NCBI GenBank assembly: GCA_031265105.1
Contig: JAISDC010000267.1
Span: 6,448-70,447 of the forward strand
DNA: 64,000 nt
DNA from: Verrucomicrobiales bacterium
Lineage (GTDB): Bacteria > Verrucomicrobiota > Verrucomicrobiia > Methylacidiphilales > JAAUTS01
Direction of reading: 5' to 3'
Shown here: positions 2,228 through 59,920 of the stretch, one piece after another
Layout: every line of letters begins with the position of its first letter
Numbering within the stretch: the stretch's first letter is position 1
Notes under the pieces: generated by a model
The model's database searches: none
What the model was told of the DNA's origin: nothing
The model's input: the letters and a program-made list of their open reading frames with translations, nothing else
Position numbers and translations under genes: made by a program

Positions 2228-4699
2228 TTAGAACTGGTGCCGGTAGCCCGCTGACAGTCCCCAAGGTTTGTCATACTTGTCGCCGAAGGAGGCTTCGTAG
2301 TCGAGGTGGAGTTGATTGTCAGCGTCGAGTTGCCAGATGATACCGCCACCGAGTTCGGCTCTGGCACCGTCAGTGTTGGCGCGGGTGGATTGATAACCGT
2401 TTCTGATGACGCCGCCGCTGCTGATGGTTTCGACGCCGCTGATCTTGATATAGGGTTGTAACGCGCCGCTGTTGGTGAGGTTGATGGTTCTGCCGAATAT
2501 GCTACCGAGGCGGAGTTGCAGGGCGTCGAGGTCTTGGGCGCTGATGCTCATCGGGCCGGCGGTGTAGTTCTCGGCGAGGATGCGGAGGTAGTTGACTTGG
2601 AACTGAGGTTCCACAAACCAACCATCGGTGAAGGTAAACTTATTACCGATTTCGAGGCTGCCGCCGAGGTTCACGTCGCTGTAGCTGGCTTTGAGTTGAG
2701 TGTTGCCGTAGGGGGCTTTTAGGTCGTTATCGACACTGGCAGCTTTGAAGGTGGCATCGATGTAGAAGCCGCTGGAGTGGAGCCAGGTGGCGTAGAGGCC
2801 GCCGTAGTAGGAGTTGAGTTCACCGTCAGCACCGGGAGTGCGGTAGTCTATATCACTGCGACCATAGCCGGCATAGACGCCCAAGTATAGGTCACTGTCA
2901 GCACTGATGGTGAACTTGTGATCCGTGCCGAGATCGACGCCGTAGATGAGTTGTTCGTAGGCTTTGCCTGCTACTTGGCTGCCGACGTTTAGCTGTTGGC
3001 CGTAGCTTCTTATCCAGATGTTGTCGATGAGGTTATGGAGCGCGGGCGTCCCGCCCGCTGGCGGGCGAGACGCCCGCGCTCCATAGCGCAACTCACCCAT
3101 GCGCTTGAGCAAACTGTTTTGCTGCGCGAACCACATGGCTTGTTGGATCGCTGCGCTGCTGTTCAATACCGCGCCGGCGGGGCTGGTGCCGTTCTTGATG
3201 AAGTGGTCACCGTCTTTGATAAGTTGGTCAATGCCCCAGTCAATCGGATCCCACTGCCAATTTTCCGTGCCGTCGCCGCTGACGATGCCGGGGAGGATTT
3301 TATTCGGGTCGGCCTTGCCATCGCCGGTGGTGTCGAGGTGAACTATGCCGTCACCGTCAGCGGTGCCGGTGATGGTGATGGAACCGCCTTCGCCGGTGTC
3401 GCTGTTGACATTGATGTTGACGGTGCCGCTGTGGGTCATGTTGTCGAAGATGACTTCATAATCGCCGATGTTCCACACGCCATTGTTCTCACCGTAGTTA
3501 CCGTGGCTGTTTTTGTCGAAAGTCCACACGCTATCGCCGCCGGTGATGAGGTTGCCGCCGGTGTAGCCGCCTTGGCCGGTGGCGCCAGTGTCGAGGATGA
3601 CGGTGACGGCAGCTTCATCGTTCTGCGCGATGTCGCCGAGCAGGGTGCTGTCGCTGCCACTGAGGGTGACCTGCAGGGTGGATGAATCGCTGCCGATGAC
3701 GTTGCCGGTCAGGTCGCTGTGGTACAAGTTTACCGTCGTATCGCCGGCATTGGCAGTCGTGATGTCGCCGGTCAAATCGGTGTTGATGAGGATTGCCGTG
3801 TGGACCCCGGAGTCGCTAGCTTTTACCGCCTCATGGGTTTGTGCAATGGTCACATCCTGCAAGATGGCAGTGCTACTTCCGGAGCCTTGAAACCGTATCC
3901 CGGTTGCATCCTCGCCGGTGGCCGTCAAGATCATGTCCGTCAAATAGACCGCGTTATCGCCGTCACCGCCTACCGCCACAAGATTAGCCGCTGACCCGCT
4001 GGTGGTGATGGAGCCGTGTCGGATGGTGATACCGCCTTCCCCCGCACTCCATGACGCCACTCCGTACGCTAACCCACCGCTGGTGTGAATCTCTATATCG
4101 GTAAAATCCGCCAGGCCGCTGCCGCCGATGCCAAAGGCTCGCGATCCCTCGGTGATAATCCGCACATTGGAACCGCTGACGGTGCTATTGCGGCTGCCAC
4201 TATTGTACACCTCGGTTAAAATGCCATAAGAATTCACGTCGCCCGTGGTGTGGATGACGGCGTTATCAATGGTAATGAGCGCGCCGGCACGCGCCCAAAC
4301 CCCATAGGAGGTCGTGCCACTCGTGGTGATGCGCACATCGTCCAACACCATGTGCCCCTGATAGGCAATCAGGCCAAACGCGCCATTGCCGGAGGTATTA
4401 ATGCTCACCGCGCTGCCACTCAGGAAAGAAGCGGCACTGTTGCCAGTGTTACTAATGTACAGGCCGTGACTGATGCTGCCGCTGGTGTCGATGGTCCACT
4501 CGTTAATGCCCGCAATCGTCCCGCCGTTACGCACAATGACGCCATAACCCCAAACCTGTGAGGTAGTGATGGTGCTTGGATTGATCGGCACCCGGTTGGT
4601 GCCGTCAACGGTCACCGTTTGCGCCAGCGCGCCGGTTGCCAGCCAGGGCCAGAGGCCGAGCAAAACGGCCCAGTTGATTAGTGTTAGTTTGGGGTTCAT
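2228..4699 (-). CDS. Autotransporter outer-membrane protein (beta-helix passenger + C-terminal beta-barrel), paralog 1
   Basis: ORF 2228..4849. The start was moved to M51 (4699), where a signal peptide begins (MNPKLTLINWAVLLGLWPWLATGALA). The passenger is G/T/S/N-rich and repetitive. The last ~280 aa form a classical autotransporter barrel ending GYRHQF. Confidence 0.85.
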   Translation of the reverse strand: MNPKLTLINWAVLLGLWPWLATGALAQTVTVDGTNRVPINPSTITTSQVWGYGVIVRNGGTIAGINEWTIDTSGSISHGLYISNTGNSAASFLSGSAVSINTSGNGAFGLIAYQGHMVLDDVRITTSGTTSYGVWARAGALITIDNAVIHTTGDVNSYGILTEVYNSGSRNSTVSGSNVRIITEGSRAFGIGGSGLADFTDIEIHTSGGLAYGVASWSAGEGGITIRHGSITTSGSAANLVAVGGDGDNAVYLTDMILTATGEDATGIRFQGSGSSTAILQDVTIAQTHEAVKASDSGVHTAILINTDLTGDITTANAGDTTVNLYHSDLTGNVIGSDSSTLQVTLSGSDSTLLGDIAQNDEAAVTVILDTGATGQGGYTGGNLITGGDSVWTFDKNSHGNYGENNGVWNIGDYEVIFDNMTHSGTVNINVNSDTGEGGSITITGTADGDGIVHLDTTGDGKADPNKILPGIVSGDGTENWQWDPIDWGIDQLIKDGDHFIKNGTSPAGAVLNSSAAIQQAMWFAQQNSLLKRMGELRYGARASRPPAGGTPALHNLIDNIWIRSYGQQLNVGSQVAGKAYEQLIYGVDLGTDHKFTISADSDLYLGVYAGYGRSDIDYRTPGADGELNSYYGGLYATWLHSSGFYIDATFKAASVDNDLKAPYGNTQLKASYSDVNLGGSLEIGNKFTFTDGWFVEPQFQVNYLRILAENYTAGPMSISAQDLDALQLRLGSIFGRTINLTNSGALQPYIKISGVETISSGGVIRNGYQSTRANTDGARAELGGGIIWQLDADNQLHLDYEASFGDKYDKPWGLSAGYRHQF
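3035..3084. repeat. REP-like palindrome, family C, inserted in frame in autotransporter 1
   Basis: ATGGAGCGCGGGCGTCCCGCCCGCTGGCGGGCGAGACGCCCGCGCTCCAT, with 14-bp perfect outer arms. Related copies lie at 39876..39925 (paralog 2) and 59420..59465 (intergenic). Confidence 0.8.
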
Positions 4700-4936
4700 G
4701 TTGGTTCTTTCGGTTGGTTGTTTGTGGTTGGTTAAAATAAAGGATTGACGCCTGGTCGCTCCCTGAGCGGAGGCGAATGGGCGGGTTGGCTCGGCAATGG
4801 GGCGAGCCGATCCTTCGGCTCTGCTCAGGATGACGGCGAGGCGGGGCACGGTCAGCGGACGGTGTCCTGCCGCATGGGGAATGAAGCGAACAAAACTCGG
4901 CGGGGAAATTAGAGAGTCGGGGCAGGCGTCGTGCTC

Positions 4937-5024
4937 TGAGCGCGTGAGCGCGTGAGCGCGTGAGCGCGTGAGCGCGTGAGCGCGTGAGCGCGTGAGCGCG
5001 TGAGCGCGTGAGCGCGTGAGCGCG
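4937..5024. repeat. Perfect 8-bp tandem repeat (TGAGCGCG)x11, which reads (CGCGCTCA)x11 on the minus strand
   Basis: Eleven contiguous identical units counted directly, about 238 nt upstream of the autotransporter 1 start codon. Confidence 0.95.
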
Positions 5025-5180
5025 ATGCTTTGATTCTATGGCCTATCTCTATCATCTTCAGCGGGTTACCGGGTTCTCGCTTTGATTTAACCACCGTGTT
5101 TTTTTAGTGGCCTGTGTCAGCGGGTACCGATAACAAGGTGAAACGGTATAGAATCAGCCTAACATGTGCAAGGATTTTTT
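4937..5180 (-). repeat. Element E copy 1: ~156-bp conserved module plus the 8-bp tandem tract
   Basis: The reverse complement of 5025..5180 aligns at roughly 75-80 % (by eye) with 59921..60083. Both end in the same octamer repeat. Conserved blocks include CCTGTTATCGG, GGCCAC.AAAAAAACA, GGTGGTTAA, CGCTGAAGATGA and CCATAGAATC. Confidence 0.75.
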
Positions 5181-5285
5181 TAACCACGGGTGAACACGGG
5201 AAAATTCCAAGCTCAAAACCATGACTCGTTATCTAGTTAACTCATCTTTGTGATCCGAGGAATCGGCGGGAAATCATGTTAGAAG

Positions 5286-6422
5286 TCAAAGCCGATCCAG
5301 CAGGCGGGCGACCACTTTCTTCGCGTCAAAAAATTCCTCGGCAATCCGGCGCGCGGCGCGGCGGTGGCGGGCTTCGTCGGCCAGCACGGCGTCCAGCGCC
5401 CGCGCGGCGCTGGCGATGTCGGTGAACGGCAGCAGCCCCTCGCCCGCGGGCAACACTTCACTCCAGCCGGTTTCCTGCACAATCACCGGGCAGCCGAGCG
5501 CCAGGCAGCAGGGACTGCGGTCGCCGAACCAGCCGCAGCGGGAACGGACGTAGCCGTGCTTGGCGGGGCTGAACTCACCTTTGCTGCTGGCGAGAAAATC
5601 ACGGTAAGTCCGCCACGCGCCGCTGACGGTGGCGGCGGCGGACAAGCGCCAGCCTTTGTCAGTGTAACGCCGGTAATCCTCGTGCTCCGGCGGCAAATCG
5701 CCGGCGATTTCCAGCCGGGCGCGGGTGCGCGCGGGCAAGTCAATCAGTCGCTCAAACTCGACGGCCTTGTTATCGTACCACTCGCCCTGGTATTCGACGG
5801 AACCGTAAGCGTACCAGTGCGTGACGGTGGCGAAGGCGTCACCGTCAGCGACGGGATGGAACGGCCAATATTCCAGGTTGACCGGCCACAGCGTCGGCCG
5901 CCATTCGATGCCGAGGCGCGGCGCGCGACAGCGTGGCGACGGCAGTTGCAGGCCGACGGTGAAAAACACGTCATGCCCGGCGAGTCCCATATCAACATGA
6001 TAGACTTCCTGCCAGATTTGCGTGAACGCGGGATCCAGGTCGGCATAAATTCGCCGCCTGGGCCGCCGCAAAATTTCCCGGTCGCGCAACAGGCCGGACA
6101 AATTCAACAACAAGTCACTGCCAGCGGCGAAATCCAGCAATTTTTCCCTGTCAGGCGATTGACCGTCCACCAGCAGCGTCTGGCATTCGGCAAACCCGAA
6201 CTCGCGCATCGTGCGCTGCCAGTGGGCGAGGTTGGCGGATTGCGCCAGGGCGGCGGGCTGACCAGCGGCGTCCCGGAGTTTTTCCGCCGCCAGATTTTCC
6301 ACCAGCCACACGTCCCAGCCGCCGGCGCGGAACGCCAGCGCCCAGTTGAGAAACGCCCAGGTGTTGCCCGCCGAATGCACGGGATAGTTAGCGATGCCAA
6401 CGCCGATGACAATCTTTGGCAT
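5286..6422 (-). CDS. Glycosyltransferase-like protein (CgeB/GT1_2-like C-terminal domain)
   Basis: 378-aa ORF. The C-terminal part (LALGCPVIVQETGW..GEGLLPF..ASAARALDAVLADEARHRRAARRIAEEFF) resembles GT1-type C-terminal domains. The exact family is not certain. Confidence 0.5.
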   Translation of the reverse strand: MPKIVIGVGIANYPVHSAGNTWAFLNWALAFRAGGWDVWLVENLAAEKLRDAAGQPAALAQSANLAHWQRTMREFGFAECQTLLVDGQSPDREKLLDFAAGSDLLLNLSGLLRDREILRRPRRRIYADLDPAFTQIWQEVYHVDMGLAGHDVFFTVGLQLPSPRCRAPRLGIEWRPTLWPVNLEYWPFHPVADGDAFATVTHWYAYGSVEYQGEWYDNKAVEFERLIDLPARTRARLEIAGDLPPEHEDYRRYTDKGWRLSAAATVSGAWRTYRDFLASSKGEFSPAKHGYVRSRCGWFGDRSPCCLALGCPVIVQETGWSEVLPAGEGLLPFTDIASAARALDAVLADEARHRRAARRIAEEFFDAKKVVARLLDRL

Positions 6423-6458
6423 AATAAACCGCCGCCGGCGGCGGAGTCACCGTCAGCG

Positions 6459-6788
6459 TCAGGCCGCCAGGCCGAGTTTTTGTTCAAGGTTGGCCTTGGA
6501 GATCATGCCGACAATCTGGTCCTTGATTTTGCCGTCCTCGAAAATCAACAGGGTCGGAATCGCCCGCACATTGTACTGCGCGGCAATTTCCTGACCCTTG
6601 TCCACATCGACCTTGCCGATGGTCACCTTGCCGACATGGGCGTCCGCGATCTGGTCCAGCAACGGCGCGAGCATCTTGCACGGCCCGCACCACTCCGCCC
6701 AAAAATCCACCAGGACGGTGCCCTTCGTCTGCAAAACTTTCGCGGCAAAATTCCCCGCGTCCAATGTGATTACGTTTTCGCTGGCCAT
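6459..6788 (-). CDS. trxA: Thioredoxin
   Basis: WCGPC active site (DFWAEWCGPCKMLAP). The start was moved to MASENVITLD (6788), giving a typical ~109-aa length. Confidence 0.9.
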   Translation of the reverse strand: MASENVITLDAGNFAAKVLQTKGTVLVDFWAEWCGPCKMLAPLLDQIADAHVGKVTIGKVDVDKGQEIAAQYNVRAIPTLLIFEDGKIKDQIVGMISKANLEQKLGLAA

Positions 6789-6917
6789 AGTCCACGCATG
6801 ATGGACGTTGCCGGTGAAAATGCAAGTTTTGCCAATCAAAAAATTCTATAGCAATTCACTTTGAACTAGCGACGGCCAGGCTCCTCTCGTAGGGCAACTG
6901 TGCATAGCGGTTAAATT

Positions 6918-7862
6918 TTAGCGCTCAAGCTCCGCCGCCTCGCCGTCGGTTAGCGCCAAATCCATCGTGCTCATCACTCCGTCCACCTGCGCCGCGTTGC
7001 GCGCGCCGACGATGGCGCCGGTGACCGCCGGGTTCCGCAACGTCCACGCAATCGCCGCCTGCCCCGCCGACCAGCCGTGCCGCGCCCCGATTTCTTTCAA
7101 CCGGTCCGCGATACGCAAGTTCACCGTCAGCGCCGGCTCGCGAAACGCCGGACTGCGCGCGCGCCAGTCGTCGGCGGGCAACTTCGCAATCCGCTCCCGC
7201 GACATCGCCCCCGTCAGCAACCCTGACCCCATCGGCGAATACACAATCACGCCGATATCGTGCCGCTGACAGTGCGGCAAAATCTCCCGCTCCACGTCAC
7301 GATTGATGAGCGAGTACGGCGGCTGTAACGATGTCACCGGCCCCACCGTCAGCGCCTCGTTGAGTTCCGCCACGTTGAAGTTCGACACGCCGGCCCAGCG
7401 CACCTTGCCGTCCTGGCGCAGCTTGTTCATCGCCTCCCACGCGCCCGCGATTTCGCCAATATCGTCGCTCGGCCAGTGAATCTGGTACAAATCAATCACG
7501 TCAGCCCGCAACCGCCGCAAGCTCGCCTCGCACTCGCCGATGATGGACTCCGGCTCGATGCAATACCCCACCGACCCGTCCACCTTGCCGAACATCCCGC
7601 ACTTGGTGAAAATGTACGGCCGCTGACCGTGCCACGACCGCAACGCGCGCGCGACCACTTTCTCCGAATGCCCGAATCCGTAAATCGCCGCCGTGTCAAT
7701 CCAGTTCACGCCCAACTCCAGCGCCCGATGAATCGCCGCGATGGACTCGCCGTCATCCTGTTTCCCCCAGCCGAATTCCCAGCCGTTGCCTCCCACCGCC
7801 CAAGCCCCGAACCCAATCGGGGTGATTTGCAAATCCGAACCGCCAAGTTTTTTCAGTTTCAT
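6918..7862 (-). CDS. Aldo/keto reductase family oxidoreductase
   Basis: 314 aa with AKR-type motifs (GFGAWAVGG, IDTAAIYGFGHSE, LQPPYSLINR, GVIVYSPMGSGLLTG). Confidence 0.85.
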   Translation of the reverse strand: MKLKKLGGSDLQITPIGFGAWAVGGNGWEFGWGKQDDGESIAAIHRALELGVNWIDTAAIYGFGHSEKVVARALRSWHGQRPYIFTKCGMFGKVDGSVGYCIEPESIIGECEASLRRLRADVIDLYQIHWPSDDIGEIAGAWEAMNKLRQDGKVRWAGVSNFNVAELNEALTVGPVTSLQPPYSLINRDVEREILPHCQRHDIGVIVYSPMGSGLLTGAMSRERIAKLPADDWRARSPAFREPALTVNLRIADRLKEIGARHGWSAGQAAIAWTLRNPAVTGAIVGARNAAQVDGVMSTMDLALTDGEAAELER

Positions 7863-7890
7863 GTGTTCAGTTAACCACCAATGACTAAAA

Positions 7891-7978
7891 AACTCCAGTC
7901 ACGAAGACCCAAAGACGCAAAGTTTTGATTTTGATAAACTAAAACACTTCGTGCCTTGGCGTCTTCGTGACTGGAGTT
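7891..7978. repeat. REP-like hairpin, family G (AACTCCAGTCACGAAGAC ... GTCTTCGTGACTGGAGTT)
   Basis: 18-bp perfect outer arms plus imperfect inner arms. It belongs to the CACGAAGAC..GGCACGAAG family, with a further copy at 38988..39062 and partial copies near 47400 and 63300. Confidence 0.8.
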
Positions 7979-7988
7979 CTAATTTGCG

Positions 7989-8630
7989 TTACCCAAGCAT
8001 CCACTCCGGCATATTTTTCAAATCCTCCGGCGTGTGAAAATTAAACACCGGCGTCCGTCCCAACTCCTCCAAAATCGCCGGATTCGTCACCGCCGCCGCC
8101 AAGTCGTCAACATCAACAGAATAATGATTCACAATCACTCCCGCCAATTCACACCCCGACGCGCGCACGCTTTCAATCGTCAACAGCGTGTGGTTCAACA
8201 TCCCCAGCGTCGCCGGCGCGACAATCGCCACCGGCAGCGCCAACTCCCGCGCCCAATCGCGCACAAAATAATTCACCGTCAGCGGCACCAGCCAACCGCC
8301 GACGCCCTCGACCAAAAACGGTCCGGGAAATTTTGTCATCACCGCCTCAACGCCGTCACGCAACGCGCAAAAATCAAACGTTTTGCCCGCCACCAAACCC
8401 GCCGCATACGGCGACAACGGCGCGGCGAGGTGCACCGGATTAATTTGGTTCAACGTCAGCGTCCCGTCATTGGCAGCGGCGAATTGCTCCGCGTCCTCAC
8501 GCCCCCCGCAGGAAATCGGCTTCAACGCCAGCGCCAACTTCCCGCGTCGCCGCAACTCCCGCGTCCACGCCGCCGTGACAAAAGTCTTCCCCACGCCAGT
8601 CCCCGTCCCCGTGATAAAAATTCCGCGCAT
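7989..8630 (-). CDS. bioD: ATP-dependent dethiobiotin synthetase
   Basis: 213 aa with an N-terminal P-loop (MRGIFITGTGTGVGKTFV) and BioD-like length and layout. Confidence 0.9.
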   Translation of the reverse strand: MRGIFITGTGTGVGKTFVTAAWTRELRRRGKLALALKPISCGGREDAEQFAAANDGTLTLNQINPVHLAAPLSPYAAGLVAGKTFDFCALRDGVEAVMTKFPGPFLVEGVGGWLVPLTVNYFVRDWARELALPVAIVAPATLGMLNHTLLTIESVRASGCELAGVIVNHYSVDVDDLAAAVTNPAILEELGRTPVFNFHTPEDLKNMPEWMLG

Positions 8631-8717
8631 ATAAATTCCAAATCACCATTTCCAACTACCAACTGCGGCTGTCGGCGCAGGTCGCCGGCTTCCTGCCGGA
8701 AGCAATTACGTCCATCA

Positions 8718-9233
8718 TCAGAAGTCCTCCAGTCTCATGGCAAAATCTATTTCGTGCCGGAGCGGTATCCCGTTCTGCCCGATATACGGTATGTCAGGCT
8801 TAAACGATTCCCGCTCCCGGTCTATCGCGCCCAAGTTCAAGCCGACCATGTCAAATCCGCGCTTTTGATAAAAGCCTATCGCGTTGATGTTGTCGTTCGA
8901 GGTCAACAGGCGCAGGATTGTACAACCGTTGGCAATGGCCGTCTGCTTTATATTATCAAGCAAAGCAGTACCAAGCCCGGTGCGTGGGCGTTCACTGTTG
9001 AGCGAAACAATTTCACAGGCATCACCGCGGATAATATAGGTCGCGAGTCCGATTACGTTTTCGCCGGATTCGTCCAACGCGATGAAGCCGGCGATTACGG
9101 CGCAGTCGATGATTTCGCTGCGAATCATTATTTGGGCGGTCTGCCACTTACGGGTGAGGTAAGTTGTCACAAGCTCGCGGGTCTCGGAGGTAATCGGCCT
9201 TATGCCGTGCGCGTTCGTCATATTGTAATTCAA
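8718..9233 (-). CDS. GNAT family N-acetyltransferase
   Basis: 171 aa with an acetyl-CoA-binding region (RPRTGLGTALLDNIKQTAIANG ... FYQKRGF). Visibly lower GC than the flanks. It lies between two copies of the bioD 5' end. Confidence 0.8.
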   Translation of the reverse strand: MNYNMTNAHGIRPITSETRELVTTYLTRKWQTAQIMIRSEIIDCAVIAGFIALDESGENVIGLATYIIRGDACEIVSLNSERPRTGLGTALLDNIKQTAIANGCTILRLLTSNDNINAIGFYQKRGFDMVGLNLGAIDRERESFKPDIPYIGQNGIPLRHEIDFAMRLEDF

Positions 9234-9449
9234 GCCTTTTCGATTCCCTATTTCAATCCTTGTAAATCCTGTTTCTCCGTGATTCCGGTTTTATCAGGTC
9301 GTGGCGGTACCCGTTCAAAGTCTTTGTCAAATCGTCCGGCGCATAAATCTCAAAATTTAAAATACCCGTCGCTGATGGCGCAGGTCAGCAACAGCGGCAA
9401 ATGGCGGCGCCTTGACAATTCACCGCGAATATATAATTCACACTAACAT

Positions 9450-9572
9450 GAAATCGGCTTCAACGCCCGCGCCGCGTTTCCGCGCCGCCGCAATTCCCGC
9501 ACCCACGCCGCCGTGACAAAGTTTTTCCAACGCCCGTGCCCGTGCCTGTGATGAAATTCCGCGCATATAAAT
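9450..9572 (-). pseudogene. Degenerate duplicate of the bioD 5' end (about codons 1-39 plus ~6 nt upstream)
   Basis: 9450..9572 aligns with 8512..8636 at ~80 % identity (by eye), including CCGCGCATATAAAT around the start codon. It is a direct repeat 938 bp from the functional copy. Confidence 0.8.
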
Positions 9573-9622
9573 CCCCAAAAGCCGTCAGCAACAACACTAT
9601 TCATGTGGCAAATCACACTGAC

Positions 9623-9650
9623 AAAAAACCCGTCGCTAACGACGGGTTTT
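9623..9650. terminator. Bidirectional rho-independent-type hairpin
   Basis: AAAAAA-CCCGTCG-CTAA-CGACGGG-TTTT: a 7-bp GC stem flanked by an A-run and a T-run. Confidence 0.5.
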
Positions 9651-9690
9651 GCGCTATAGCTTGGTTACGTTGCCCCAAAAGGCAAGAGGC

Positions 9691-9720
9691 TTGACCAAGC
9701 ATCACAGTTTTGAATATATT
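9691..9720 (+). promoter_or_regulatory. Candidate sigma70-type promoter for the Abi-like gene
   Basis: TTGACC (9691-9696), a 17-18 nt spacer, then ATATAT/TATATT (9714-9720), about 30 nt upstream of the ATG at 9750. Confidence 0.35.
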
Positions 9721-9749
9721 TCACGCGGCAGAACTGTCAAATATAAACT

Positions 9750-10421
9750 ATGGATTTCAATCAATTCCAAAAATTTTTTTCTGCGATGCGGGTTAATCGT
9801 TATTTGCAAGCCGTTCATGGCGAATCGGACGCCGCCATCAAATTATACCGAAACAATCTGAAAATCGCGCGCGCTTTTCATCCCTTGCTTGGCATTGTGG
9901 AAGTGGCATTACGCAACCGTCTCAATGATTTGCTGACGGTATATTTTCATGACGCGGACTGGATTATTAATCAGAAGAATGGATTCATGTCGGATTCGTC
10001 GTTAACCAACAGCTTTTTACGAGACGAGGTAACGCGAGCGGAAAAAAGATTAAAGCGTATGGGCGTGCCAGTAACGGCGGGAAAAATCATCGCTGAACAA
10101 TCATTCGGTTTTTGGTCGGATTTGTTCGCCAAATATCATTACCGGATTTTGCAAGGACGGGTCATCAAAGCATTTGTCAATCTGCCGCCAAACTGCGGGC
10201 GCAAGGAAGTCTATCGCAAGCTCGGGCAAATCAGAAAATTTCGCAACCGCATCAATCATAACGAACCGGTTTGTTTCAAAGGTGACACGGCGGATTTTAC
10301 TGAGGCACTGAAGGTGCATCAATCCATTGTCTGCATTTTGCAATGGCTGGGACCGGAATTATCTGAATTTGTCACGGGACTGGACGAAGTTCGGTATGAA
10401 ATTTCTAGCGCCGCGTCATAG
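9750..10421 (+). CDS. Abi-like protein (Abi_2 / AbiD-AbiF family)
   Basis: 223 aa. The N-terminal pattern (F..FS..R...YL.....D...A..LY..N..IA.AF...L..VEV.LRN) and C-terminal RNRINH-type helix match my recollection of PF07751 proteins. The surrounding island is low-GC. Confidence 0.7.
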   Translation: MDFNQFQKFFSAMRVNRYLQAVHGESDAAIKLYRNNLKIARAFHPLLGIVEVALRNRLNDLLTVYFHDADWIINQKNGFMSDSSLTNSFLRDEVTRAEKRLKRMGVPVTAGKIIAEQSFGFWSDLFAKYHYRILQGRVIKAFVNLPPNCGRKEVYRKLGQIRKFRNRINHNEPVCFKGDTADFTEALKVHQSIVCILQWLGPELSEFVTGLDEVRYEISSAAS

Positions 10422-10449
10422 CGATAAATAAAATTCAAATTTCAAAAAA

Positions 10450-10476
10450 CGCTGACGGTGAAACTCATCGTCAGCG
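10450..10476 (+). terminator. Hairpin formed by an inverted pair of the abundant motif (CGCTGACG-11 nt-CGTCAGCG)
   Basis: 8-bp stem located 29 nt after the Abi-like stop codon and preceded by an A-run. No strong T-tract follows, so terminator function is tentative. Confidence 0.35.
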
Positions 10477-10526
10477 AAGACTAACATTTTCTTGCTCACC
10501 ATCAGCGGCTGGCTATTCTTTGTTGC

Positions 10527-11180
10527 ATGAGCCGAAAATACAAAATATGGATTGTCGTTGGCGCCTGTCTCGTTGTCTTTTGCTATGGTGCGCTGATGCT
10601 CATGCTCGCTTTTGTCCAAAATGACGAAAAATTATCTTTTACCAACGGAGGCTCATCCGTGTTGCGTGTCCCTCGCTTTTGTAAGGTTAGCAGTCAAAAT
10701 TTCGTTTACGCGAATAATCATGTGACCGTCAGCGGTCAAGCTAACACCACCGCCCGCAATTTTATCCCACAGCTTCAGCCGTTATCTTTGAAATTCAACG
10801 AAATGAGATTGCGCGTGACCGATGCCCCCGCTGACGGTGAAGTGATTATTCGCTCTGATTTAAAACTAAGAAAATTCAACTTAAAGTTAAAAACTCTCGT
10901 GGGTGTGCGTTCTTGGCCGCAGCCATCAGCGACGCGCGACACCAAACTGCTCAGCGTCAGCGTGATCATGACGCCTGACGGCCTCCGATTAAACGACGTG
11001 CCATGCACACAGAATGAATTGCCGTCCAAGTTGAGCGAGCTTGCCGCAAAATATTCCAATTCACTCATGCTTAATTTTACCCTGGCGGGCGAGATTCAAT
11101 ACGGCGATTTTTTCAAGGTCTTGCAACAATGCCAAATCCCGGCGTTCGGCAATTTCAGAGTATCTGAACTTCGCCGCTGA
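10527..11180 (+). CDS. Hypothetical membrane-anchored protein (weak ExbD/TolR-like C-terminal region)
   Basis: 217 aa with one N-terminal TM helix (IWIVVGACLVVFCYGALMLMLAF). The tail (VIMTPDGLRLNDVPCTQNELPSKLSELA...GEIQYGDFFKVLQQC) loosely resembles ExbD periplasmic domains. Confidence 0.5.
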   Translation: MSRKYKIWIVVGACLVVFCYGALMLMLAFVQNDEKLSFTNGGSSVLRVPRFCKVSSQNFVYANNHVTVSGQANTTARNFIPQLQPLSLKFNEMRLRVTDAPADGEVIIRSDLKLRKFNLKLKTLVGVRSWPQPSATRDTKLLSVSVIMTPDGLRLNDVPCTQNELPSKLSELAAKYSNSLMLNFTLAGEIQYGDFFKVLQQCQIPAFGNFRVSELRR

Positions 11181-11296
11181 CAGTCACCGTTTTTGCTTTT
11201 TCGGACAGTCGCCCAATTAATTTCCCCAAGGTTAATCTCCGCCGTCAGCGGTGCCTCGCGATATGTGAATGGCAAATGACTCGACACCACCGGTCG

Positions 11297-11324
11297 TTGA
11301 CAGCATGGTCAGCGACATTATACT
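11297..11324 (+). promoter_or_regulatory. Candidate promoter giving a leaderless or near-leaderless lepB mRNA
   Basis: TTGACA (11297-11302), a 16-nt spacer, then TATACT (11319-11324). The ATG lies at 11331, only 6 nt past the -10 element. Confidence 0.35.
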
Positions 11325-11330
11325 TCGCTC

Positions 11331-11939
11331 ATGACCACGCCGCCGCCGCTGCCCGTCCCGTTCCCGCACCGTTGTTCAACCGAAGCGCTTTGGAAAAAAA
11401 CCGTCATTGGATTATGCCTGTTTTCAGCACTTATCGGCACGACACTTTTATTGTTGCGGCTTACCGGAGGGCTGCGCTGTTTCTTTGTGCCGACCAACAG
11501 TATGGCACCGGCGGTCGCTGCCGGTGACCATATCATCATGGACGGCGTTTCATTTTGGTTTCGCGAGCCTCGGCGCGGCGACATCGCCATTTTCAAGACC
11601 GGCGACATTCCCAGATGGCCGGATAATATTTTCGCCCAACGCATTGCCGGTTTGCCGGGTGATAAAATTAAAATCTCCGATGGCAATTTATTCATCAACG
11701 GCGCGCAAGTCTTTTTGTACAATCGCAACGGCAACATCATTTACACCCTGCCGGACCAACGGTCGGATGCCAGGTACCTTACCGAAACAACCGTGCCGCC
11801 GGACTGCTACTTCATGCTGGGCGACAATTCCGCAAACAGCTTCGACAGCCGTTACCGGGGCGTTGTCCCGCGCCGCGCCATCATGGGACGCGCTCTTTAT
11901 TGTTATTATCCGCTCGCCAGAACCGGCGTGATTCAATAA
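11331..11939 (+). CDS. lepB: Signal peptidase I
   Basis: 202 aa with S26 boxes: SMAPAV (catalytic Ser), GDHIIMD, RRGDIAIF, QRIAGLPGDKI and MLGDNSANSFDSRY. Confidence 0.85.
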   Translation: MTTPPPLPVPFPHRCSTEALWKKTVIGLCLFSALIGTTLLLLRLTGGLRCFFVPTNSMAPAVAAGDHIIMDGVSFWFREPRRGDIAIFKTGDIPRWPDNIFAQRIAGLPGDKIKISDGNLFINGAQVFLYNRNGNIIYTLPDQRSDARYLTETTVPPDCYFMLGDNSANSFDSRYRGVVPRRAIMGRALYCYYPLARTGVIQ

Positions 11940-12043: not shown

Positions 12044-13411
12044 TTAATTCACAACCTCTTCGATCCCCTTGCACAACGCGCTGACCATGACGTCAACTTC
12101 AGCGGGCGTCGTCGTGTACGGCGGCATCAACAGCAACACATCACGCCCAGCCGGGCGCGTGAGCAGGCCGTGTTTTTTCGCCGCCTCGCACACGCGCGCG
12201 CCGACGCGCAGCGACGGGTCAAACGGCTCGCGCGTGGAAAAATCCTTCACCAATTCGATTGCCAGAATACAGCCCTCCTGCCGCACGTCGCCGACCGCTG
12301 GCAGTGACCAAAATTTTTCATGCGCCGCTGTCAACGCCGCTGCCAATCGCCGCTGACGGTCGGCGCAATTGTCGCTTTGCAAAATATCCAACGTCGCCAG
12401 CGCCGCCGCGCAACCGAGTTGGTTGCCGGTGTAACTGTGACCGTGGAAAAATGTCCGCGTCGCGTCGCCGCGAAAACCGTCAAAAATTTTCTCTGTCAGC
12501 AACGTCACCGCCAGCGGCAGATAACCACCGGTGAGCGCCTTCGCCAGCGCAACCAAATCCGGCGCGACCTGTTCTTTTTGCCACGCGAATATCGCGCCCG
12601 TGCGTCCGAAGCCGGTCATCACTTCGTCGAGAATCACCAGCGCGCCGTGCCGTTGCGCGATGGCGCAGGTTTCCGCCAGATAATTGTCCGGATGCATGAT
12701 GAAGCCCGCCGCCCCTTGCACGCGCGGCTCGACGACCCACGCCGCCGCGCGCGCACCGTCAGCGGCGAATTTTTTCTCCACCGCTGCGATACACTCGCGC
12801 CCGCACCGCGCGTAAGCGCGCGCGTCAGCGCGTTGCGGCGCGGCTTGGTTGAACGGGCAGCGGTAGCAATACGGCACCGGCACCTCGTCCGACTCGAACA
12901 GCATGTTTCTATAACAATGATGAAACAACTTGCTATGCCCGACGCTCATCGCGCCGACCGTGTCCCCGTGATACCCCGCTGACAGTGACACGAATTTTTT
13001 CCGTTGCGGCTCGCCGTTCTGCGCGAAAAACTGATACGTGATTTTCAACGCCGCCTCAATCGCCGTCGCCCCGTCGTCGGAAAAAAAGCAGCGCGTGAGC
13101 CGGTCATCGTCAGCGAGTTCGACCAGCCGTTTCCCCAACACCGGCGCGAGTTCATTGGTCAGCCCAAGGAACGACGAATGAGCAATCCGGTCAAGCTGCG
13201 CCCTAATCGCCCCGCTGACCGTGGCGTTGCGATGCCCGTGAATATTCGTCCAAATGGAAGAATTGCCGTCGAGATATTTATTCCCCTGGTCGTCGCACAA
13301 CCACGACCCGTCCCCGCTGACAATGACCGTCGGCGCATAATCCGCTGCCAGCCAGGCATCCGTCAGCGTGAACGGATGCCACAAATATTTTTTATCCAGC
13401 GCGGCGGGCAT
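12044..13411 (-). CDS. bioA: Adenosylmethionine-8-amino-7-oxononanoate aminotransferase
   Basis: Class-III PLP aminotransferase (YLWHPFT, GNSSIWTNIHGH, SAGYHGDT, ILDEVMTGFGRTG). The start was moved from 13465 to MPAALDKKYLW (13411) because the first 18 ORF codons are REP-A sequence. Confidence 0.9.
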   Translation of the reverse strand: MPAALDKKYLWHPFTLTDAWLAADYAPTVIVSGDGSWLCDDQGNKYLDGNSSIWTNIHGHRNATVSGAIRAQLDRIAHSSFLGLTNELAPVLGKRLVELADDDRLTRCFFSDDGATAIEAALKITYQFFAQNGEPQRKKFVSLSAGYHGDTVGAMSVGHSKLFHHCYRNMLFESDEVPVPYCYRCPFNQAAPQRADARAYARCGRECIAAVEKKFAADGARAAAWVVEPRVQGAAGFIMHPDNYLAETCAIAQRHGALVILDEVMTGFGRTGAIFAWQKEQVAPDLVALAKALTGGYLPLAVTLLTEKIFDGFRGDATRTFFHGHSYTGNQLGCAAALATLDILQSDNCADRQRRLAAALTAAHEKFWSLPAVGDVRQEGCILAIELVKDFSTREPFDPSLRVGARVCEAAKKHGLLTRPAGRDVLLLMPPYTTTPAEVDVMVSALCKGIEEVVN

Positions 13412-14392: not shown

Positions 14393-15286
14393 GTGAAAAT
14401 CCTGACTCCCGGCGACTGGCCGGATTACGAATTGATTGACAGCGGCGGCGGCGAGAAGCTGGAGCGGTTCGGCGCCCGCGTGTTGCGGCGGCCGGAGCCG
14501 AAGGCGGTGTGGGCGCGGTCGCTGCCGGCGGACGAGTGGCGGCGGCTGGCGGACACGACGTTCACGGCGGGCGTCGGCCTCGGCCAGCCGGGGCGGGAGG
14601 ACCGCGGGACGTGGCGCGCGGACGGCGGGCGGCGCGAGCGGTGGTCGGTGCGCTTCCAGTATCAGCGGCTGGATTTGCGCCTGCGGCTGGGGCTGACCGC
14701 GTTCAAGCACGTCGGCGTGTTTCCCGAACAGGCGCCGAACTGGCGGTGGATTTATGACACGACGCGGTCGCTGCCGGTGACCGCGCCGCGGGTGCTGAAC
14801 TTGTTCGCCTACACGGGCGGCGCGTCACTGGCGGCGCGCGCGGCGGGGGCAGCGGTGACGCATGTGGACTCGGTGCGGCAAGTCGTGACCTGGGCGCGGG
14901 AGAACATGACGGCGTCGGGGCTGACGGACATCCGCTGGATTGTGGACGACGCACTGAAGTTCGCGCAACGCGAGGCGCGGCGCGGCAGTGTGTATCACGG
15001 CATCCTGCTCGACCCGCCCGCCTACGGCCACGGCGTTGACGGTCAGCGGTGGAAGCTGGACGAGAATATTTTGGAGTTGCTGCAAACGTGCCGCGCAATC
15101 CTGGCGCCGCGCGACAGTTTCCTGTTGTTGAACTTGTACTCCAACGGCTTCTCCGCGCTGGTGGCGGACACGCTGACGCAGACGGTCTTTGGTCCCGCCC
15201 GCGAGCGCGAGTGCGGGGAGCTGGCGCTGACTGACCGTTTCAACAAGCGTCTGCCGCTGAGTGTGTTTTCGCGGGTGCGATTATAG
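14393..15286 (+). CDS. Class I SAM-dependent methyltransferase (COG1092 / RlmI-like)
   Basis: 297 aa with a GTG start. Motifs include DYELIDSGGGEKLERFG, the SAM-binding VLNLFAYTGGASLAAA, and LLDPPAYG. Confidence 0.8.
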   Translation: MKILTPGDWPDYELIDSGGGEKLERFGARVLRRPEPKAVWARSLPADEWRRLADTTFTAGVGLGQPGREDRGTWRADGGRRERWSVRFQYQRLDLRLRLGLTAFKHVGVFPEQAPNWRWIYDTTRSLPVTAPRVLNLFAYTGGASLAARAAGAAVTHVDSVRQVVTWARENMTASGLTDIRWIVDDALKFAQREARRGSVYHGILLDPPAYGHGVDGQRWKLDENILELLQTCRAILAPRDSFLLLNLYSNGFSALVADTLTQTVFGPARERECGELALTDRFNKRLPLSVFSRVRL

Positions 15287-15343
15287 ACCATCGGGTTGAT
15301 TTTATCTCGCCGGTAAAATCAACTGGCAAACAGGCTATTGTTT

Positions 15344-15547
15344 TTAGGCAACCGGTTTTCTTTTATTGCGAAAACAAAGAATGGCGATGATGAGTCCAAT
15401 GGCTATGGCGACCAGATGTGCCATATATACGGTAACAGTATAATCTCCCGCGGTTTCACCACTGATTAGCTTGGACAGCAAGGCAATTAGGTGTGCAAGA
15501 GCGAATAACGCGGCAAGTGAGCCGATAACATAACGGAGGATTTTCAT
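15344..15547 (-). CDS. Small hypothetical membrane protein (2 TM helices)
   Basis: 67 aa (GSLAALFALAHLIALL ... LVAIAIGLIIAILCF). It sits in a ~345-bp low-GC insert between duplicated methyltransferase 3' ends. Confidence 0.45.
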   Translation of the reverse strand: MKILRYVIGSLAALFALAHLIALLSKLISGETAGDYTVTVYMAHLVAIAIGLIIAILCFRNKRKPVA

Positions 15548-15625
15548 GCTTCATCATGATTTATGGAGAGATTGAGAATTTGTCAAATTTATTTTAAGGA
15601 ATCACCCTGACCGGGCAATTGGCAC

Positions 15626-15774
15626 TTCAACGGTTTTCCGCACTGGCGGCCGACACGCTGACGCTGACCGTCTTCGGTCCCGCCCGCGAGCGCGAGTGCG
15701 GGGAGTTGGCGCTGACCGACCGTTTCAACAAGCGTCTGCCGCTGAGTGTGTTTTCACGGGTGAAGTTCGCGTAA
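15626..15774 (+). pseudogene. Duplicate of the methyltransferase 3' end (last ~45 codons plus an alternative stop)
   Basis: 15626..15762 aligns with 15140..15277 at ~88 % (by eye). It ends ...SRVKFA-TAA, versus ...SRVRL-TAG in the intact gene. Confidence 0.8.
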
Positions 15775-18015: not shown

Positions 18016-18126
18016 AATAAACTCCAGTGTTTGGTTAATTTAGTTCTGACAAAGGCATGATGTTAGCGAGCCATCCTGCCGAGGCAAGTGGGGAATTGGC
18101 TCGGTGCCGCGGTGGTTTTCCCGGTG

Positions 18127-18188
18127 AACGCTGAACTACCCCGTCTGCTTGCGCGGCCATCCCTTCGCGGAAGGGGTAGTTCAGCGTT
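18127..18188. repeat. REP-B hairpin (AACGCTGAACTACCCC ... GGGGTAGTTCAGCGTT)
   Basis: 16-bp perfect stem enclosing CCATCCCTTCGCGGAAGGGG. It lies between the activase and transketolase-like genes. Confidence 0.8.
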
Positions 18189-18219: not shown

Positions 18220-21200
18220 TTAATTGGCATTTGGAGTTTGGCATTTGGAATTTTCCCCGCCGGGAAGACTCGCCGCCGCCAATTCCTCCCTTGCGCTGTG
18301 GATGAGGAAATGCAGCCGGTTGAAAATATTCACCTCACTCACGCCCGGGTCGAAGTCCAGGCACAGCAAATTCAGGCGCGGATACAAATCGCGCAAACGG
18401 CGCTCAATACCCTTGGCGACCAGTTGATTGGCGATGCAGCCGAAGGGTTGCACGCTGACGGCGTGGTGGATGCCGCGTTCGGCGAGGGCGGACAACTCGG
18501 CGGGGATGAGCCAGCCCTCGCCGTATTGCGCGGCGGGGCTGACGAGGCGCGTCGCGGCGGCGTGACCGTCAGCGAGATTTTCCAGCGGTTGCTGATAACG
18601 AAACCCGGCGGCGGCGCGGGTGAATTTTTCGCGGTACAACTCCAGCACTGTTCGCAGCGCGGGGTCTAGCAAATCGCTGACGGTGAGGCGGGACAGGTGC
18701 TGCTCACGGTTGCTGCGGCGGTTGAAAAATTCCTGCAGGAAAAAATCCGCCAGCGGCGGCACGACCGGCTCCACGCCTTGCGCGATGAGCCACTCGACCA
18801 GGTGCCGGTTGCCGGCGGCGTTGTGCTTGACGTAAATCTCGCCGACCACGCCGACGCGCGGGCGCGGCGCTGACGATGGCGTGACGGCGTTGAACTCGCG
18901 CGCGGCGGCGCGCAGCAAGGCGGGCAACGCGGCGGCGTCCCGTCGCCGCACCCGCGCCACCCCGTCGGCGAGATACCGGTCGCGCACCCGCGCGGCGGCG
19001 CCGGGCGCGGTCTCGCGCGGCGCGGCGGCGTGATACATTGACGCGAGACTGTCAGCGTAAAACAGCGCGGCGACGGCGAGCCGGCGGCGCCCGCGCCAAC
19101 GCAGGCGAAAACCGGGCTGCGCGTTGCGCACCGCGCCGGCGGCGGTGCCGATGGCGACCACCGGCACGTCGGCGAAACCGGCGGCGCTGACGGCGCGGCG
19201 GATGAGCGCGGCGTAAGCGGTGGCGCGGCATTGCCCGCCGGTCTGCGTGATGGCGAGGGCGACCTGGTCGCGCCGGTGGCGGCCCGACTCGAGCGCGCGG
19301 ATGAAATCGCCCGCCACCAGCGTCGCCGGATAACACACCTCATTGTTGGCGAACCGCAAGCCGCGCTCGGCGGACGCGGCGTCGGGCGGCGGCAGCGTGA
19401 CGGCGCGGTGCCCCAGCAACTCCAGCAACGGCGCGATGAACGGCGAGTGGCACGCGGAGAAAAACGGCACCAGCAGCGCGCGGTCACGGTCAGCGGCGGT
19501 GTATAATTCCCCTTCCGTGAAGGGGTGGCGGCGCGCGCCGACGGGGTAGTTCAGCGTTTTGCGCTGCGTCCCCTCTAACGCTGAACTACCCCGTCCGCTG
19601 CGCGGCCACCCCTTCGCGGAAGGGGAATTGCCCAAGCCGCAATCACGCGCGGCTTCCAATGACCTTAGCGGAGCGGAACCATTATTATCCGCCGACGGTG
19701 AGGAAAAATTCACCGCCGCTGACGGTGCCACTCGCCGCGCGAGGCTCTCAATCAGCGAGCGCGCGCGCAACCGCAACGCGCCGGGCGTTTGCATATCGTC
19801 CACCTTCAAAACCGTGTGACTCTTGCCCGCGCGCCGCAACCGGTCGCCGACCGAGTCCGTGAGAAACGCGTCCGGCCCGCAACCGAACGACGTGAGTTGC
19901 ACCAACTGCACCTGCGGCGGCGCGGCGGCCACCCACACGGCGGCCTGGCGCAAGCGGTTGGGATACGACCAGCGACCGGCGGCGGGCGCGCCGCCCCGCG
20001 CGACATCCTCGCTGACCACATCGGCGCCGAGCGCGCACAACAACTCGGCGGCGCGGTGCTGTATCAGCGGGTCGGCGTGATACGGCCGCCCCGCGAGCAC
20101 CAGCAGCGGGCGCGAACCGTCATTGCCGGCGACGATGGCGCGCGCGTGCTCCGCCGTCGCCCTGACAAATTCATCCTGCGCGGCGAGCGCTTGCGCGAAG
20201 GCTCGGGCAAAAATCCTCGCGCTAACGTTGAGCGTGCCGACCAAATACTCGCGGCAGGATTTTCGCAACAACCCGACATCGCCGAACGTCAGCACCGGCG
20301 CGTCCAGCGGCACGCCGTGACGGTCGGCGGGATTGATGGCGCTGCGGATGACGTCGGCGTAGCCGCTGACGATGGGGCAGTTGTACGCGCCGTCCCGCTC
20401 GCGCACGGCGAACGGCATCAGGATGCGGTCCACGTCGCGCGCGAGCAAATCGCGGACGTGCCCGTGCGCGAGCTTGGCGGGGAAACAAATGTTGTCCGCC
20501 ATGACGCTCGCCGCGCCGCTCTCCGCCAGCGCGGGCGTGGAGGGCGCGGAGAGCGTGACGCCGCACCCGCCGGCGGTGAGCAGCGTGTGCCAGAACGGAA
20601 AATTCTCGTAGCAACCGAGCGCGCGCGGGATGCCGATGTTCGGTCGCTGACGGTCACGCTCACCGTCAGCGGCGGCGCGGTCGAACAGCAGTTGCAGTTT
20701 GCGCGGGAAAAAATTCGCGCCGCGCCGCCGCCGCTGGCCGCTGTTGGTGAAAATTTTCTCGCACTTGTTGCCGGAACAAAACGCGCCGCCGCCGGCGAAC
20801 CGGCGCAGCGTCACGCGGCAATGATTGTCGCAACCGGGACACACGCGCTCCCCGGCGGTCGAGTTCACCGGCAGCGTCAGTGCCGCCAGTGGGCGCGGCG
20901 GCGCGGTCACCGTCAGCGCGCGCCACGCCGCGCCGTAAGCGCCCATCAGCTCCGGCAGCGGCGCGATGGCGATGGGTTTCCCTAACAACCGCTCCAGCGC
21001 CCGCGCCACGGCGTGATTCCGCATGACGCCGCCCTGCACGACCACGCGCGGGCCGAGTTCGTCCGCGTGTTTGAGCTTGAGCACTTTGTACAAGCAATTT
21101 TTCGCCACCGCGTAGGCCAGGCCGGCGGCGAGGTCGGCGGGCGCGGCGTTCTCGCGCAACGCCTGCCGCACCCTGGAATTCATGAACACCGTGCAGCGCG

Positions 21201-23404: not shown

Positions 23405-23432
23405 AAATGTCAGAAAAATAAACCGGGCCAAG

Positions 23433-23586
23433 AACGCTGAACTACCCCGGCGGCTGGCGCCGCCACCCCTTCACGGAAGGGGAATCGCTGGCGCGGAGAC
23501 CAATCCCGCTGACCCTGACCTATGCGCGAGCAAATTCCCCTTCCGTGAAGGGGTGGCCGCGAATGCGGACGGGGTAGTTCAGCGTT
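23433..23586. repeat. REP-B pair in the opposite arrangement (unit - 47 nt - inverted unit)
   Basis: AACGCTGAACTACCCCGG..CCACCCCTTCACGGAAGGGGAAT ... AATTCCCCTTCCGTGAAGGGGTGG..GGGGTAGTTCAGCGTT. Confidence 0.8.
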
Positions 23587-59805: not shown

Positions 59806-59920
59806 GCTAATATTTAAGCGCGAAATGTTGCCGGCGTAAATACTCTCTATGTTCAGGTGTAGCGTCACCCGTTATGACCAGCTCATCGAGGTATATATGA
59901 AATTTGTGGACGAGGCCTAA

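Follow-up and report, generated by a model that had tools for sequence, protein, structure and literature searches.

A probable scar of one-sided recombination at the bioD gene of a Verrucomicrobiales bacterium, with a Firmicutes-like GNAT gene as cargo

We analyzed a 64,000-nucleotide stretch of DNA from an uncultured Verrucomicrobiales bacterium (assembly GCA_031265105.1, contig JAISDC010000267.1, positions 6,448 to 70,447), hereafter referred to as the window. In this window the 5′ end of the biotin gene bioD occurs twice, and a GNAT-family acetyltransferase gene lies between the two copies. Sequence comparison with relatives reveals an empty site, a separate allele type for each of the two copies, a mosaic breakpoint inside the working bioD, and a composite insert whose parts meet at tight junctions and whose GNAT-bearing part has a Firmicutes affinity. 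The reading that we favor, with a probability of about 0.6, is that the locus is the scar of an additive, one-sided import of ~1.07 kb (9446 to ~8376) of the type known as homology-facilitated illegitimate recombination (HFIR). The initial annotation of this DNA had proposed a different route, the integration of a small circular molecule carrying a bioD patch of ~130 bp through a single Campbell-type crossover, and had named HFIR as an alternative that would give the same layout. It is this alternative that the data favor.

A direct repeat of the bioD 5′ end brackets a GNAT gene

The gene at 7989-8630 (minus strand) has a full-length match to the Pfam domain AAA_26 (PF13500, E = 2.4e-31, residues 2-195), its reading frame is uninterrupted, and related genomes carry an ortholog among their biotin genes, all of which identify it as bioD. 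A repeat search, a MAFFT alignment and blastn of the window against itself revealed that positions 9447-9578 repeat positions 8509-8642 in direct orientation (134 alignment columns, 83.6% identity, in-window E = 3e-32), with a start-to-start distance of 936-938 nt. The repeat extends from ~12 nt 5′ of the bioD ATG (8630; the ATG of the copy is at 9567) through codon 40. The upstream copy carries two 1-nt gaps (deletions), both of them in T runs. The same pair had been noted earlier at 8512-8636 and 9450-9572, with an identity of ~80%, and the locus had been described as a cargo flanked by two homologous segments, the cargo including a GNAT gene of lower GC content. Both the repeat and the layout turned out to be real: the GC content is 0.49-0.54 over 8600-9500, compared with 0.58-0.63 in bioD.

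The GNAT gene (8718-9233, minus strand, likely start at 9221) was recognized by the Pfam domain Acetyltransf_1 (E = 2e-11). It is the sole sizeable open reading frame (ORF) between the repeat copies, as the remaining ORFs within 8631-9446 encode no more than 25 aa.

The empty site and the resident stump

A genome scan with BioD identified three metagenome-assembled genomes (MAGs) of Verrucomicrobiales (L001, L002 and L003), and a protein search led, through the BioD protein P0121, to a closer relative on a JGI contig (L007). The BioD proteins of the window and of L007 share 93% aa identity. L007 aligns with the window on both sides of the insert: its positions 3646-7608 correspond to window 13405-9452 at 95.6% identity (a 3963-nt alignment) and its positions 7480-8574 to window 8642-7549 at 95.3%. 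The L007 gene order is MNT-HEPN-bioA, a signal peptidase I gene (SPase), a gene for a 217-aa hypothetical protein (hyp217) and the Abi_2-family gene Abi2, followed by 190 bp, an intact bioD and an AKR gene. In the alignment L007 has no GNAT gene, no counterpart of the fragment X described below, no duplicate and nothing corresponding to window 9446-8643. The duplicate is also absent in L001, L002 and L003. Judged by this alignment, L007, the closest relative found, is the empty site. The search for such a site among relatives had been suggested in the initial annotation, which had also reasoned that an insertion would have to be doubted if all relatives had the same layout or if the similarity between the copies were insignificant. 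L007 is without the layout, and the E-value of the repeat leaves no doubt about the similarity.

L007 might in principle have lost the insert through deletion from one repeat copy to the other. Such a revertant would be of the window type beyond the repeat, whereas L007 differs from the window there at 13 of 133 positions (8376-8508). This rules out L007 as a revertant.

The upstream copy (9447-9578, minus strand) comprises ~11 nt of leader and codons 1-40, and is colinear with the start of L007 bioD. It occupies the native position of the bioD start, at 182 nt from the start of Abi2 versus 190 nt in L007, and its leader is common to both. Furthermore, at the 13 repeat sites that separate L007 from the full copy in the window, it is identical to L007 at 11 and to the full copy at two. 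The native position, the L007 alleles and the cut at codon 40 therefore identify the upstream copy as what remains of the 5′ end of the resident gene, a stump that is now a pseudogene. Since the stump is of the L007 type and the full copy is not, the earlier suggestion that the two copies come from different lineages stands.

The differences between the stump and the full copy are distributed over the three codon positions as 2/3/13, and the non-synonymous ones (T23V, K31N and L32A) are variants that are also found in L001 or L003. Such a distribution implies that most of the 16% divergence arose while both copies were parts of working genes in different lineages. The differences between the stump and L007 are spread more evenly (3/2/5, plus two indels), as would be expected from decay after the event. 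The stump is ~10% diverged from L007, versus 4.4% for the region overall, and this excess indicates that the event is not recent.

Mosaic structure of the working bioD

We then considered the sites that discriminate between L001 and L007 along the working gene. From the leader into the gene (8664-8382), 20 of them are L001-like and 12 are L007-like; over 8370-7990 the corresponding counts are four and 61. The switch from one type to the other is best placed between 8382 and 8370 (Fisher p = 4.6e-9), as a homologous crossover within bioD would leave it. The donor-type side includes a 34-nt bioD leader (8631-8664, minus strand), which shares 82% identity with its L001 counterpart and 71% with the one in L007, and the 5′ part of bioD, codons 1 to ~85 (8376-8630, minus strand), which contains the repeat copy 8509-8630. 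Across 8376-8664 the sequence is closer to L001 (91.3% identity) than to L007 (87.9%), and positions 8376-8508, which lie outside the repeat, are not of the L007 type, as if the recipient DNA between the two joins had been replaced. The donor-type tract thus passes the end of the repeat (8509) by ~130 nt within the gene. The 3′ part of bioD (7989-8375, minus strand) is of the resident type and continuous with the adjoining spacer and AKR gene. Its identity is 95.9% to L007 and 80.4% to L001, and the identity to L007 climbs to 97-100% into AKR, through position 7549. On the basis of these sites, the donor is a third lineage, which in this segment is closer to L001 than to L007 and identical to neither.

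The insert is composite and its junctions are tight

The 808 bp between the copies had been thought to carry only the GNAT gene. In fact, they are a composite of verrucomicrobial intergenic DNA, a Firmicutes-like chunk and the donor-type bioD leader.

The verrucomicrobial component next to the stump, fragment X (9353-9446, minus strand, 94 nt), is ~80% identical to L001 4260-4345. The similarity spans 9454 to ~9353, and the L001 counterpart lies directly upstream of an ORF for a 160-aa membrane protein. Fragment X is absent from L007 and has no second occurrence in the window. The join between the stump and X reads ...GCCGATTTCATG|TTAGTG..., and the L001 counterpart reads ...AAATTTCATG|TTAGTG...; the stump end ...GCCGATTTCATG runs on as TTAGTGTGAATT.... 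At this place the resident bioD has ATT-(G/T)CC-TG, which matches the junction patch ATTTCATG at 6-7 of 8 nt (ATT.C.TG is shared), and the CAT of the patch is the start codon of the membrane-protein ORF in L001. In sequence, the join at bioD codon 40 is a typical illegitimate microhomology junction, such as characterizes the non-homologous end of an HFIR event.

The middle component (8667-9352, minus strand, 685 bp), found by blastn and delimited by pairwise alignments, holds the entire GNAT gene, preceded by the last ~30 nt of a small ORF with a spacer and followed by the first ~16 codons of a GrpB-like gene. Window 9340-8669 is 85% identical to a JGI contig (L005), and 9261-8697 is 87% identical to an Oscillospiraceae MAG (L004). 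The GNAT protein shares 89% aa identity with an Oscillospiraceae protein (P0001), and its further homologs are all from Clostridia. Exact-product look-ups with the 171-aa and 167-aa versions of the protein gave no match. The differences between the GNAT gene and its L004 homolog, 12/9/40 by codon position, indicate that it evolved as a functional gene. The switch from X to the chunk occurs within at most 6 nt, and ~3-5 nt separate the other end of the chunk (~8667) from the L001-like bioD leader (8664). Both ends fall inside neighboring genes. The chunk therefore appears to be a random piece of a Firmicutes-type chromosome and not a cassette with its own recombination sites.

Several other identities of the insert were considered and rejected. 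There is no integrase or recombinase in or next to it: Pfam and NCBIfam searches of 8631-9446 gave acetyltransferase matches only. A site-specific island or an integron-like cassette is contradicted by the lack of both a recombinase gene and an att or attC site, as well as by the chunk ends within neighboring genes. A GNAT-toxin/RHH-antitoxin module can likewise be dismissed, as there is no ORF above 25 aa upstream, the NCBIfam scores are far below the family cut-offs, and the neighbors of the gene in the Oscillospiraceae context (L004) are YjbQ and GrpB. Short direct repeats had also been assigned a place around the junctions. They do exist (GGCGCAGGTC at 8674 and 9377, GTCAGCAACA at 9387 and 9586, and CACACT(A/G)AC at 9440 and 9614), but none is at a junction, and their excess is not clear (three exact repeated 10-mers in this stretch versus 0.75 expected, P ~0.08). 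These 10-nt repeats therefore have no demonstrable part in the joins.

Proposed course of the event

The event would have started from an L007-like chromosome with the order bioA-SPase-hyp217-Abi2-bioD-AKR. The incoming DNA, ~1.07 kb from a related verrucomicrobial lineage, would have consisted of X, the Firmicutes-derived GNAT chunk, a bioD leader and bioD codons 1 to ~85 or more. Its right end would have been joined by a homologous crossover inside bioD, between 8382 and 8370, and its left end by an illegitimate join at a 6-8-nt microhomology (ATTTCATG versus ATT-G/TCC-TG) in resident bioD codons 39-41. Resident codons 41 to ~85 would thereby have been exchanged for donor DNA, while the resident leader and codons 1-40 would have stayed upstream as the stump, which may since have gained its two frameshifts. 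In such an exchange bioD is kept intact because the incoming DNA supplied its own leader and 5′ end. The product resembles a 130-bp duplication flanking a cargo because the donor tail itself holds the bioD leader and codons 1-40. All of this would have arrived in a single step as linear DNA. Entry may have been by natural transformation, to which an uptake-sequence-like motif occurring about once per kb (see below) points circumstantially. Further scars within the same 64 kb, together with this motif, fit a lineage that often recombines imported DNA.

A number of points weigh against this HFIR-type import. No donor with the arrangement X-GNAT-leader-bioD was present among the GNAT or BioD homologs. 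Scans of metagenome contigs with BioD peptides and with the 23-nt junction of the GNAT chunk and the leader gave no match either; they did not return L007, so the collection apparently does not include these samples. With no donor found, the single-step import is deduced from the scar rather than directly demonstrated, and the Firmicutes chunk may either have belonged to the donor beforehand or have been picked up during the event itself. The test for the breakpoint uses ~97 informative sites and only two reference lineages, and the 5′ tract is just modestly nearer to L001 than to L007 (91.3% versus 87.9%). The window itself probably derives from a metagenome assembly, and the joins are known from the assembled sequence alone. 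Finally, in E. coli conjugation experiments HFIR proper was predicted to delete target DNA, and the duplications observed, 109-950 bp long, were products of circular molecules integrated by single crossovers (PMC3240628), so that a duplication in itself points towards Campbell-type events.

Alternative explanations

It is for this last reason that we keep the Campbell-type route as the main rival, although we consider it rather unlikely. It would require a small circle with a bioD 5′ segment, X and the GNAT gene, integrated by one homologous crossover, and subsequently further steps, such as a microhomology deletion that trimmed the first copy to codon 40 or a gene conversion that lengthened the donor tract. 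Direct repeats do bracket the whole insert, as such an integration predicts, the E. coli target duplications arose in this manner, and an 18-nt identical block is present at the end of the repeat. This block, however, is conserved in all orthologs and hence is not diagnostic. The route also accounts less well for the distribution of alleles. Donor-type sites continue for ~130 nt past the repeat instead of being confined to the repeats and the cargo. Nor do the repeats form reciprocal hybrids: of 13 sites in the stump 11 are of the resident type, and the full copy is of the donor type along the entire repeat, which would leave only the last ~25 nt for a crossover. In addition, the junction of stump and cargo is a microhomology join to what in L001 is the beginning of a membrane-protein gene unrelated to bioD. 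The circle would thus need at least one additional event, namely a longer original homology reduced by a later microhomology deletion. The version with a ~130-bp patch and one crossover, as initially put forward, fits less well than the HFIR-type import.

Another possibility, which we regard as distinctly improbable, is a series of independent events, in which an older rearrangement produced the junction between the stump and X, a Firmicutes chunk was inserted illegitimately on a separate occasion, and the 5′ region of bioD underwent an unrelated allelic replacement. The cargo is indeed a composite of three sources, and the divergence of the stump from L007 (~10% versus 4.4% regionally) would have left time for several steps. 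However, X (with its L001-like position), the donor-type leader and the donor-type 5′ part of bioD form a continuous series that exactly fills the interval missing in L007, and a single import explains them all. Very little probability remains for a site-specific integrative islet that restored the bioD 5′ end, or for an assembly chimera of two strains. The succession of stump, cargo and restored gene does resemble integrase-borne islands with a replacement gene end, but no integrase, tRNA or Rfam feature is present in or near the insert, the cargo is a random chromosomal fragment and the donor tract exceeds the repeat. As for a chimera, the source is probably a metagenome contig, yet the stump is frameshifted and its junction unique, and perfect identity between the copies at the end in question extends over no more than ~18 nt, which is below the usual assembly k-mers. 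The least credible history is an old local tandem duplication of the bioD 5′ end, followed by decay of the upstream copy and a later insertion of the GNAT gene. In its favor, stump and X meet in the manner of a duplication junction, and the stump is frameshifted. Nevertheless, the copies differ by 2/3/13 across codon positions, with non-synonymous variants that occur in orthologs, the stump matches L007 while the full copy does not, and L007 is without the duplication and not a revertant. The codon-position pattern and the allele typing together contradict duplication followed by decay. A template/variable pair resembling that of a diversity-generating retroelement was considered for another repeat pair of the window (15138/15624, see below). 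For the bioD pair such a reading is disfavored by the location of the repeat at the 5′ end of a housekeeping gene and by differences that are mostly synonymous third-position ones, and the ORFs scanned near bioD included no reverse transcriptase gene.

Relation to known systems

Some integrase-borne islands target the ends of tRNA or protein genes and bring a replacement end. They resemble the bioD locus in leaving a stump of the original gene end, a cargo and a restored gene. In contrast to them, the bioD locus has no integrase and no att-type core, its cargo is random chromosomal DNA and its recombinant tract extends into the gene.

HFIR has been described in naturally transformable Acinetobacter, Streptococcus pneumoniae and Pseudomonas stutzeri (primary papers as cited in PMC5361080 and PMC3240628). 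As at bioD, a single homologous crossover in the anchor is paired with an illegitimate join at a short microhomology, heterologous DNA comes to lie beside the anchor, and a stretch of the recipient (here codons 41 to ~85) is replaced. The bioD case differs in that the recipient sequence to the left of the illegitimate join has a homolog within the heterologous tail, making the outcome look like a 130-bp duplication rather than a plain insertion-deletion. It is also a natural scar, whereas the HFIR cases are experimental products. Campbell integration of circles, exemplified by lacZ duplications (PMC3240628), shares with bioD the direct repeats of ~100-900 bp that flank the inserted DNA. Unlike there, the bioD repeats are not reciprocal hybrids, donor sequence continues past the repeat and one junction is a microhomology join.

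HFIR-like displacement has been proposed for the orphan gene ends in type VI secretion system (T6SS) arrays of Vibrio cholerae (PMC5361080). In the orphan ends of T6SS, Rhs and contact-dependent inhibition (CDI) loci, one-sided homology similarly displaces part of a resident gene, a stump stays beside the new module and repeated scars accumulate (PMC5361080). What is retained there are the 3′ ends or the immunity genes of polymorphic toxins. The targets in the window, on the other hand, are housekeeping genes (bioD, bioA and an rRNA-methyltransferase-like gene), and a working gene is reconstituted.

The mechanism is therefore already known, and the bioD locus adds an example, not a principle or a new kind of element. 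Its value is that of a well-resolved natural scar which, as far as sequence can tell, documents cross-phylum gene gain beside a housekeeping gene. The empty site, the stump, the donor tract, both junctions and the cross-phylum cargo are all readable, so that the locus provides a legible natural record of how a foreign gene can be gained without mobile-element machinery. It also illustrates how an essential gene survives an insertion at its 5′ end when a replacement start arrives with the incoming DNA. Scars of this kind could serve as a practical marker of one-sided recombination in MAGs. The parts that could lead further are the recurrence of such scars and the uptake-sequence-like motif.

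Further scars and an uptake-sequence-like motif

The surroundings of bioD vary between relatives. In L002 and L003 bioF, bioA and bioD are contiguous, and L002 runs straight on into AKR. In the window and in L007 the Abi_2-family gene, the 217-aa hypothetical gene and the signal peptidase I gene are located between bioA and bioD (window 9750-11939). L001 has the hypothetical gene and a small, partly frameshifted toxin-antitoxin-like pair upstream of bioD (4390-5561) and a Bro-N domain gene between bioD and AKR. These arrangements give the biotin locus the appearance of a hotspot of small genes with accessory or defense roles.

A second scar involves bioA (61867-62973, plus strand). Here a decayed bioA 5′ stump (61867-61971) is followed by an MntA/HEPN-type toxin-antitoxin pair on the minus strand (61965-62680) and then by another bioA 5′ end that is cut off in the window (62757-62973). 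L007 2747-3841 contains a bioA 5′ stump (2747-2860), the MntA/HEPN pair and an intact bioA that differs in its leader and first codons. The window stump is an ortholog of the L007 stump, though more decayed and with internal deletions. Being common to both, this scar is older than the split of their lineages. In the window, a 196-bp bioA 5′ piece occurs at 13210-13405 (minus strand) and, inverted and 49 kb apart, at 62757-62952 (plus strand), with 95.4% identity. The second-type bioA start is fused to 62936-62973, which matches 12953-12990, and the working bioA (12044-13411) carries the stump-type leader. One bioA copy is accompanied by bioF (58202-59335) and MNT/HEPN, the other by the working bioA-SPase-hyp217-Abi2-bioD series, and all of these are colinear in L007. 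Read from the sequence, the split arrangement implies an inversion or a translocation with a breakpoint in bioA.

A third scar (15138-15762, plus strand) was found at an rRNA-methyltransferase-like gene (14393-15286). The last 140 nt of this gene, 15138-15277, are repeated at 15624-15762, 486 nt downstream, with 91% identity and one 1-nt deletion. Between the two copies is a low-GC insert of 337 bp, which carries a ~67-aa membrane ORF on the minus strand. The downstream copy retains what appears to be the original stop codon and a long terminator hairpin.

The window is also rich in a non-palindromic motif, (T)CACCGTCAGCG(G). In the 64 kb there are 61 copies of its 10-mer core, divided almost equally between the plus (31) and the minus strand (30), or about one per kb, and CCGTCAGCGG occurs 31 times versus 0.31 expected. 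Examples are found at 8275, 10450, 10725, 10829, 12351, 12755 and 62686. Some copies form inverted pairs after genes, such as 10449-10476 after Abi2. The motif is present in L001, L003 and L007 and absent from the Firmicutes loci and from L002, where the commonest 10-mers are of the related GCCGTTAGCG type. A literature search with the 11-mer produced only incidental primer-type matches. In density and strand symmetry the motif resembles known DNA uptake sequences, a lead and not a demonstration. The only families for which specific DNA uptake sequences are, to our knowledge, well established are Neisseriaceae and Pasteurellaceae.

These observations suggest a tentative and rather doubtful hypothesis: this uncultured Verrucomicrobiales lineage may be naturally transformable, with (T)CACCGTCAGCG(G) as a lineage-specific uptake sequence (and a GCCGTTAGCG-type ‘dialect’ in L002, a more remote relative), and one-sided, stump-leaving recombination may recurrently add accessory and defense genes next to housekeeping genes. 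If so, small genes, even from another phylum, would be gained beside housekeeping genes time and again, as the three scars in 64 kb would illustrate.

Expression context of bioD and other repeats

The GNAT gene and bioD share one strand, the former 87 nt upstream of the latter, and the interval showed no terminator-like site. The two genes are probably co-transcribed, either from X or from the old bioD promoter region. Recombination between the repeats, which are 84% identical, could occasionally delete the GNAT gene. The native Abi2-bioD intergenic region (9579-9749, minus strand) aligns with L007 7302-7491 and includes a promoter-like site at 9740-9713 (score 11/12). Between this site and the old bioD start, at 9623-9654, the sequence contains a strong hairpin followed by a T tract (CCCGTCG-TTAG-CGACGGG-TTTTTT in minus-strand sense), which is kept in L007. 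The hairpin may function upstream of bioD as a terminator or attenuator, or it may be left over from the insertion of Abi2. ARAGORN and Rfam searches of the whole window at gathering thresholds showed no tRNA, tmRNA or riboswitch to be involved.

Several short palindromic or hairpin repeat families, resembling repetitive extragenic palindromes or miniature inverted-repeat transposable elements, are scattered through the window, mostly in intergenic regions. They include 7891-7978 and 63325-63362; 18126-18176, 19505-19629 and 23432-23587 (also L001 611-816); 3034-3085, 39875-39926 and 59419-59466; and 26654-26749, 43266-43369, 48457-48545 and 49644-49720. One of these families forms the spacer between bioD and AKR, which is kept in L007. 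An inverted repeat pair, 4974-5182 (minus strand) and 59918-60134 (plus strand), with 81% identity, contains a run of 5-7 copies of the 8-nt unit CGCTCACG and is also present at L007 558-757; one copy is downstream of bioF and the other beside a glycosyltransferase gene. The autotransporter beta-domain genes at 2228-4849 and 39069-41174 (both on the minus strand) match over 1.5 kb at 85.7% identity (2228-3718 versus 39069-40559) and are ordinary paralogs.

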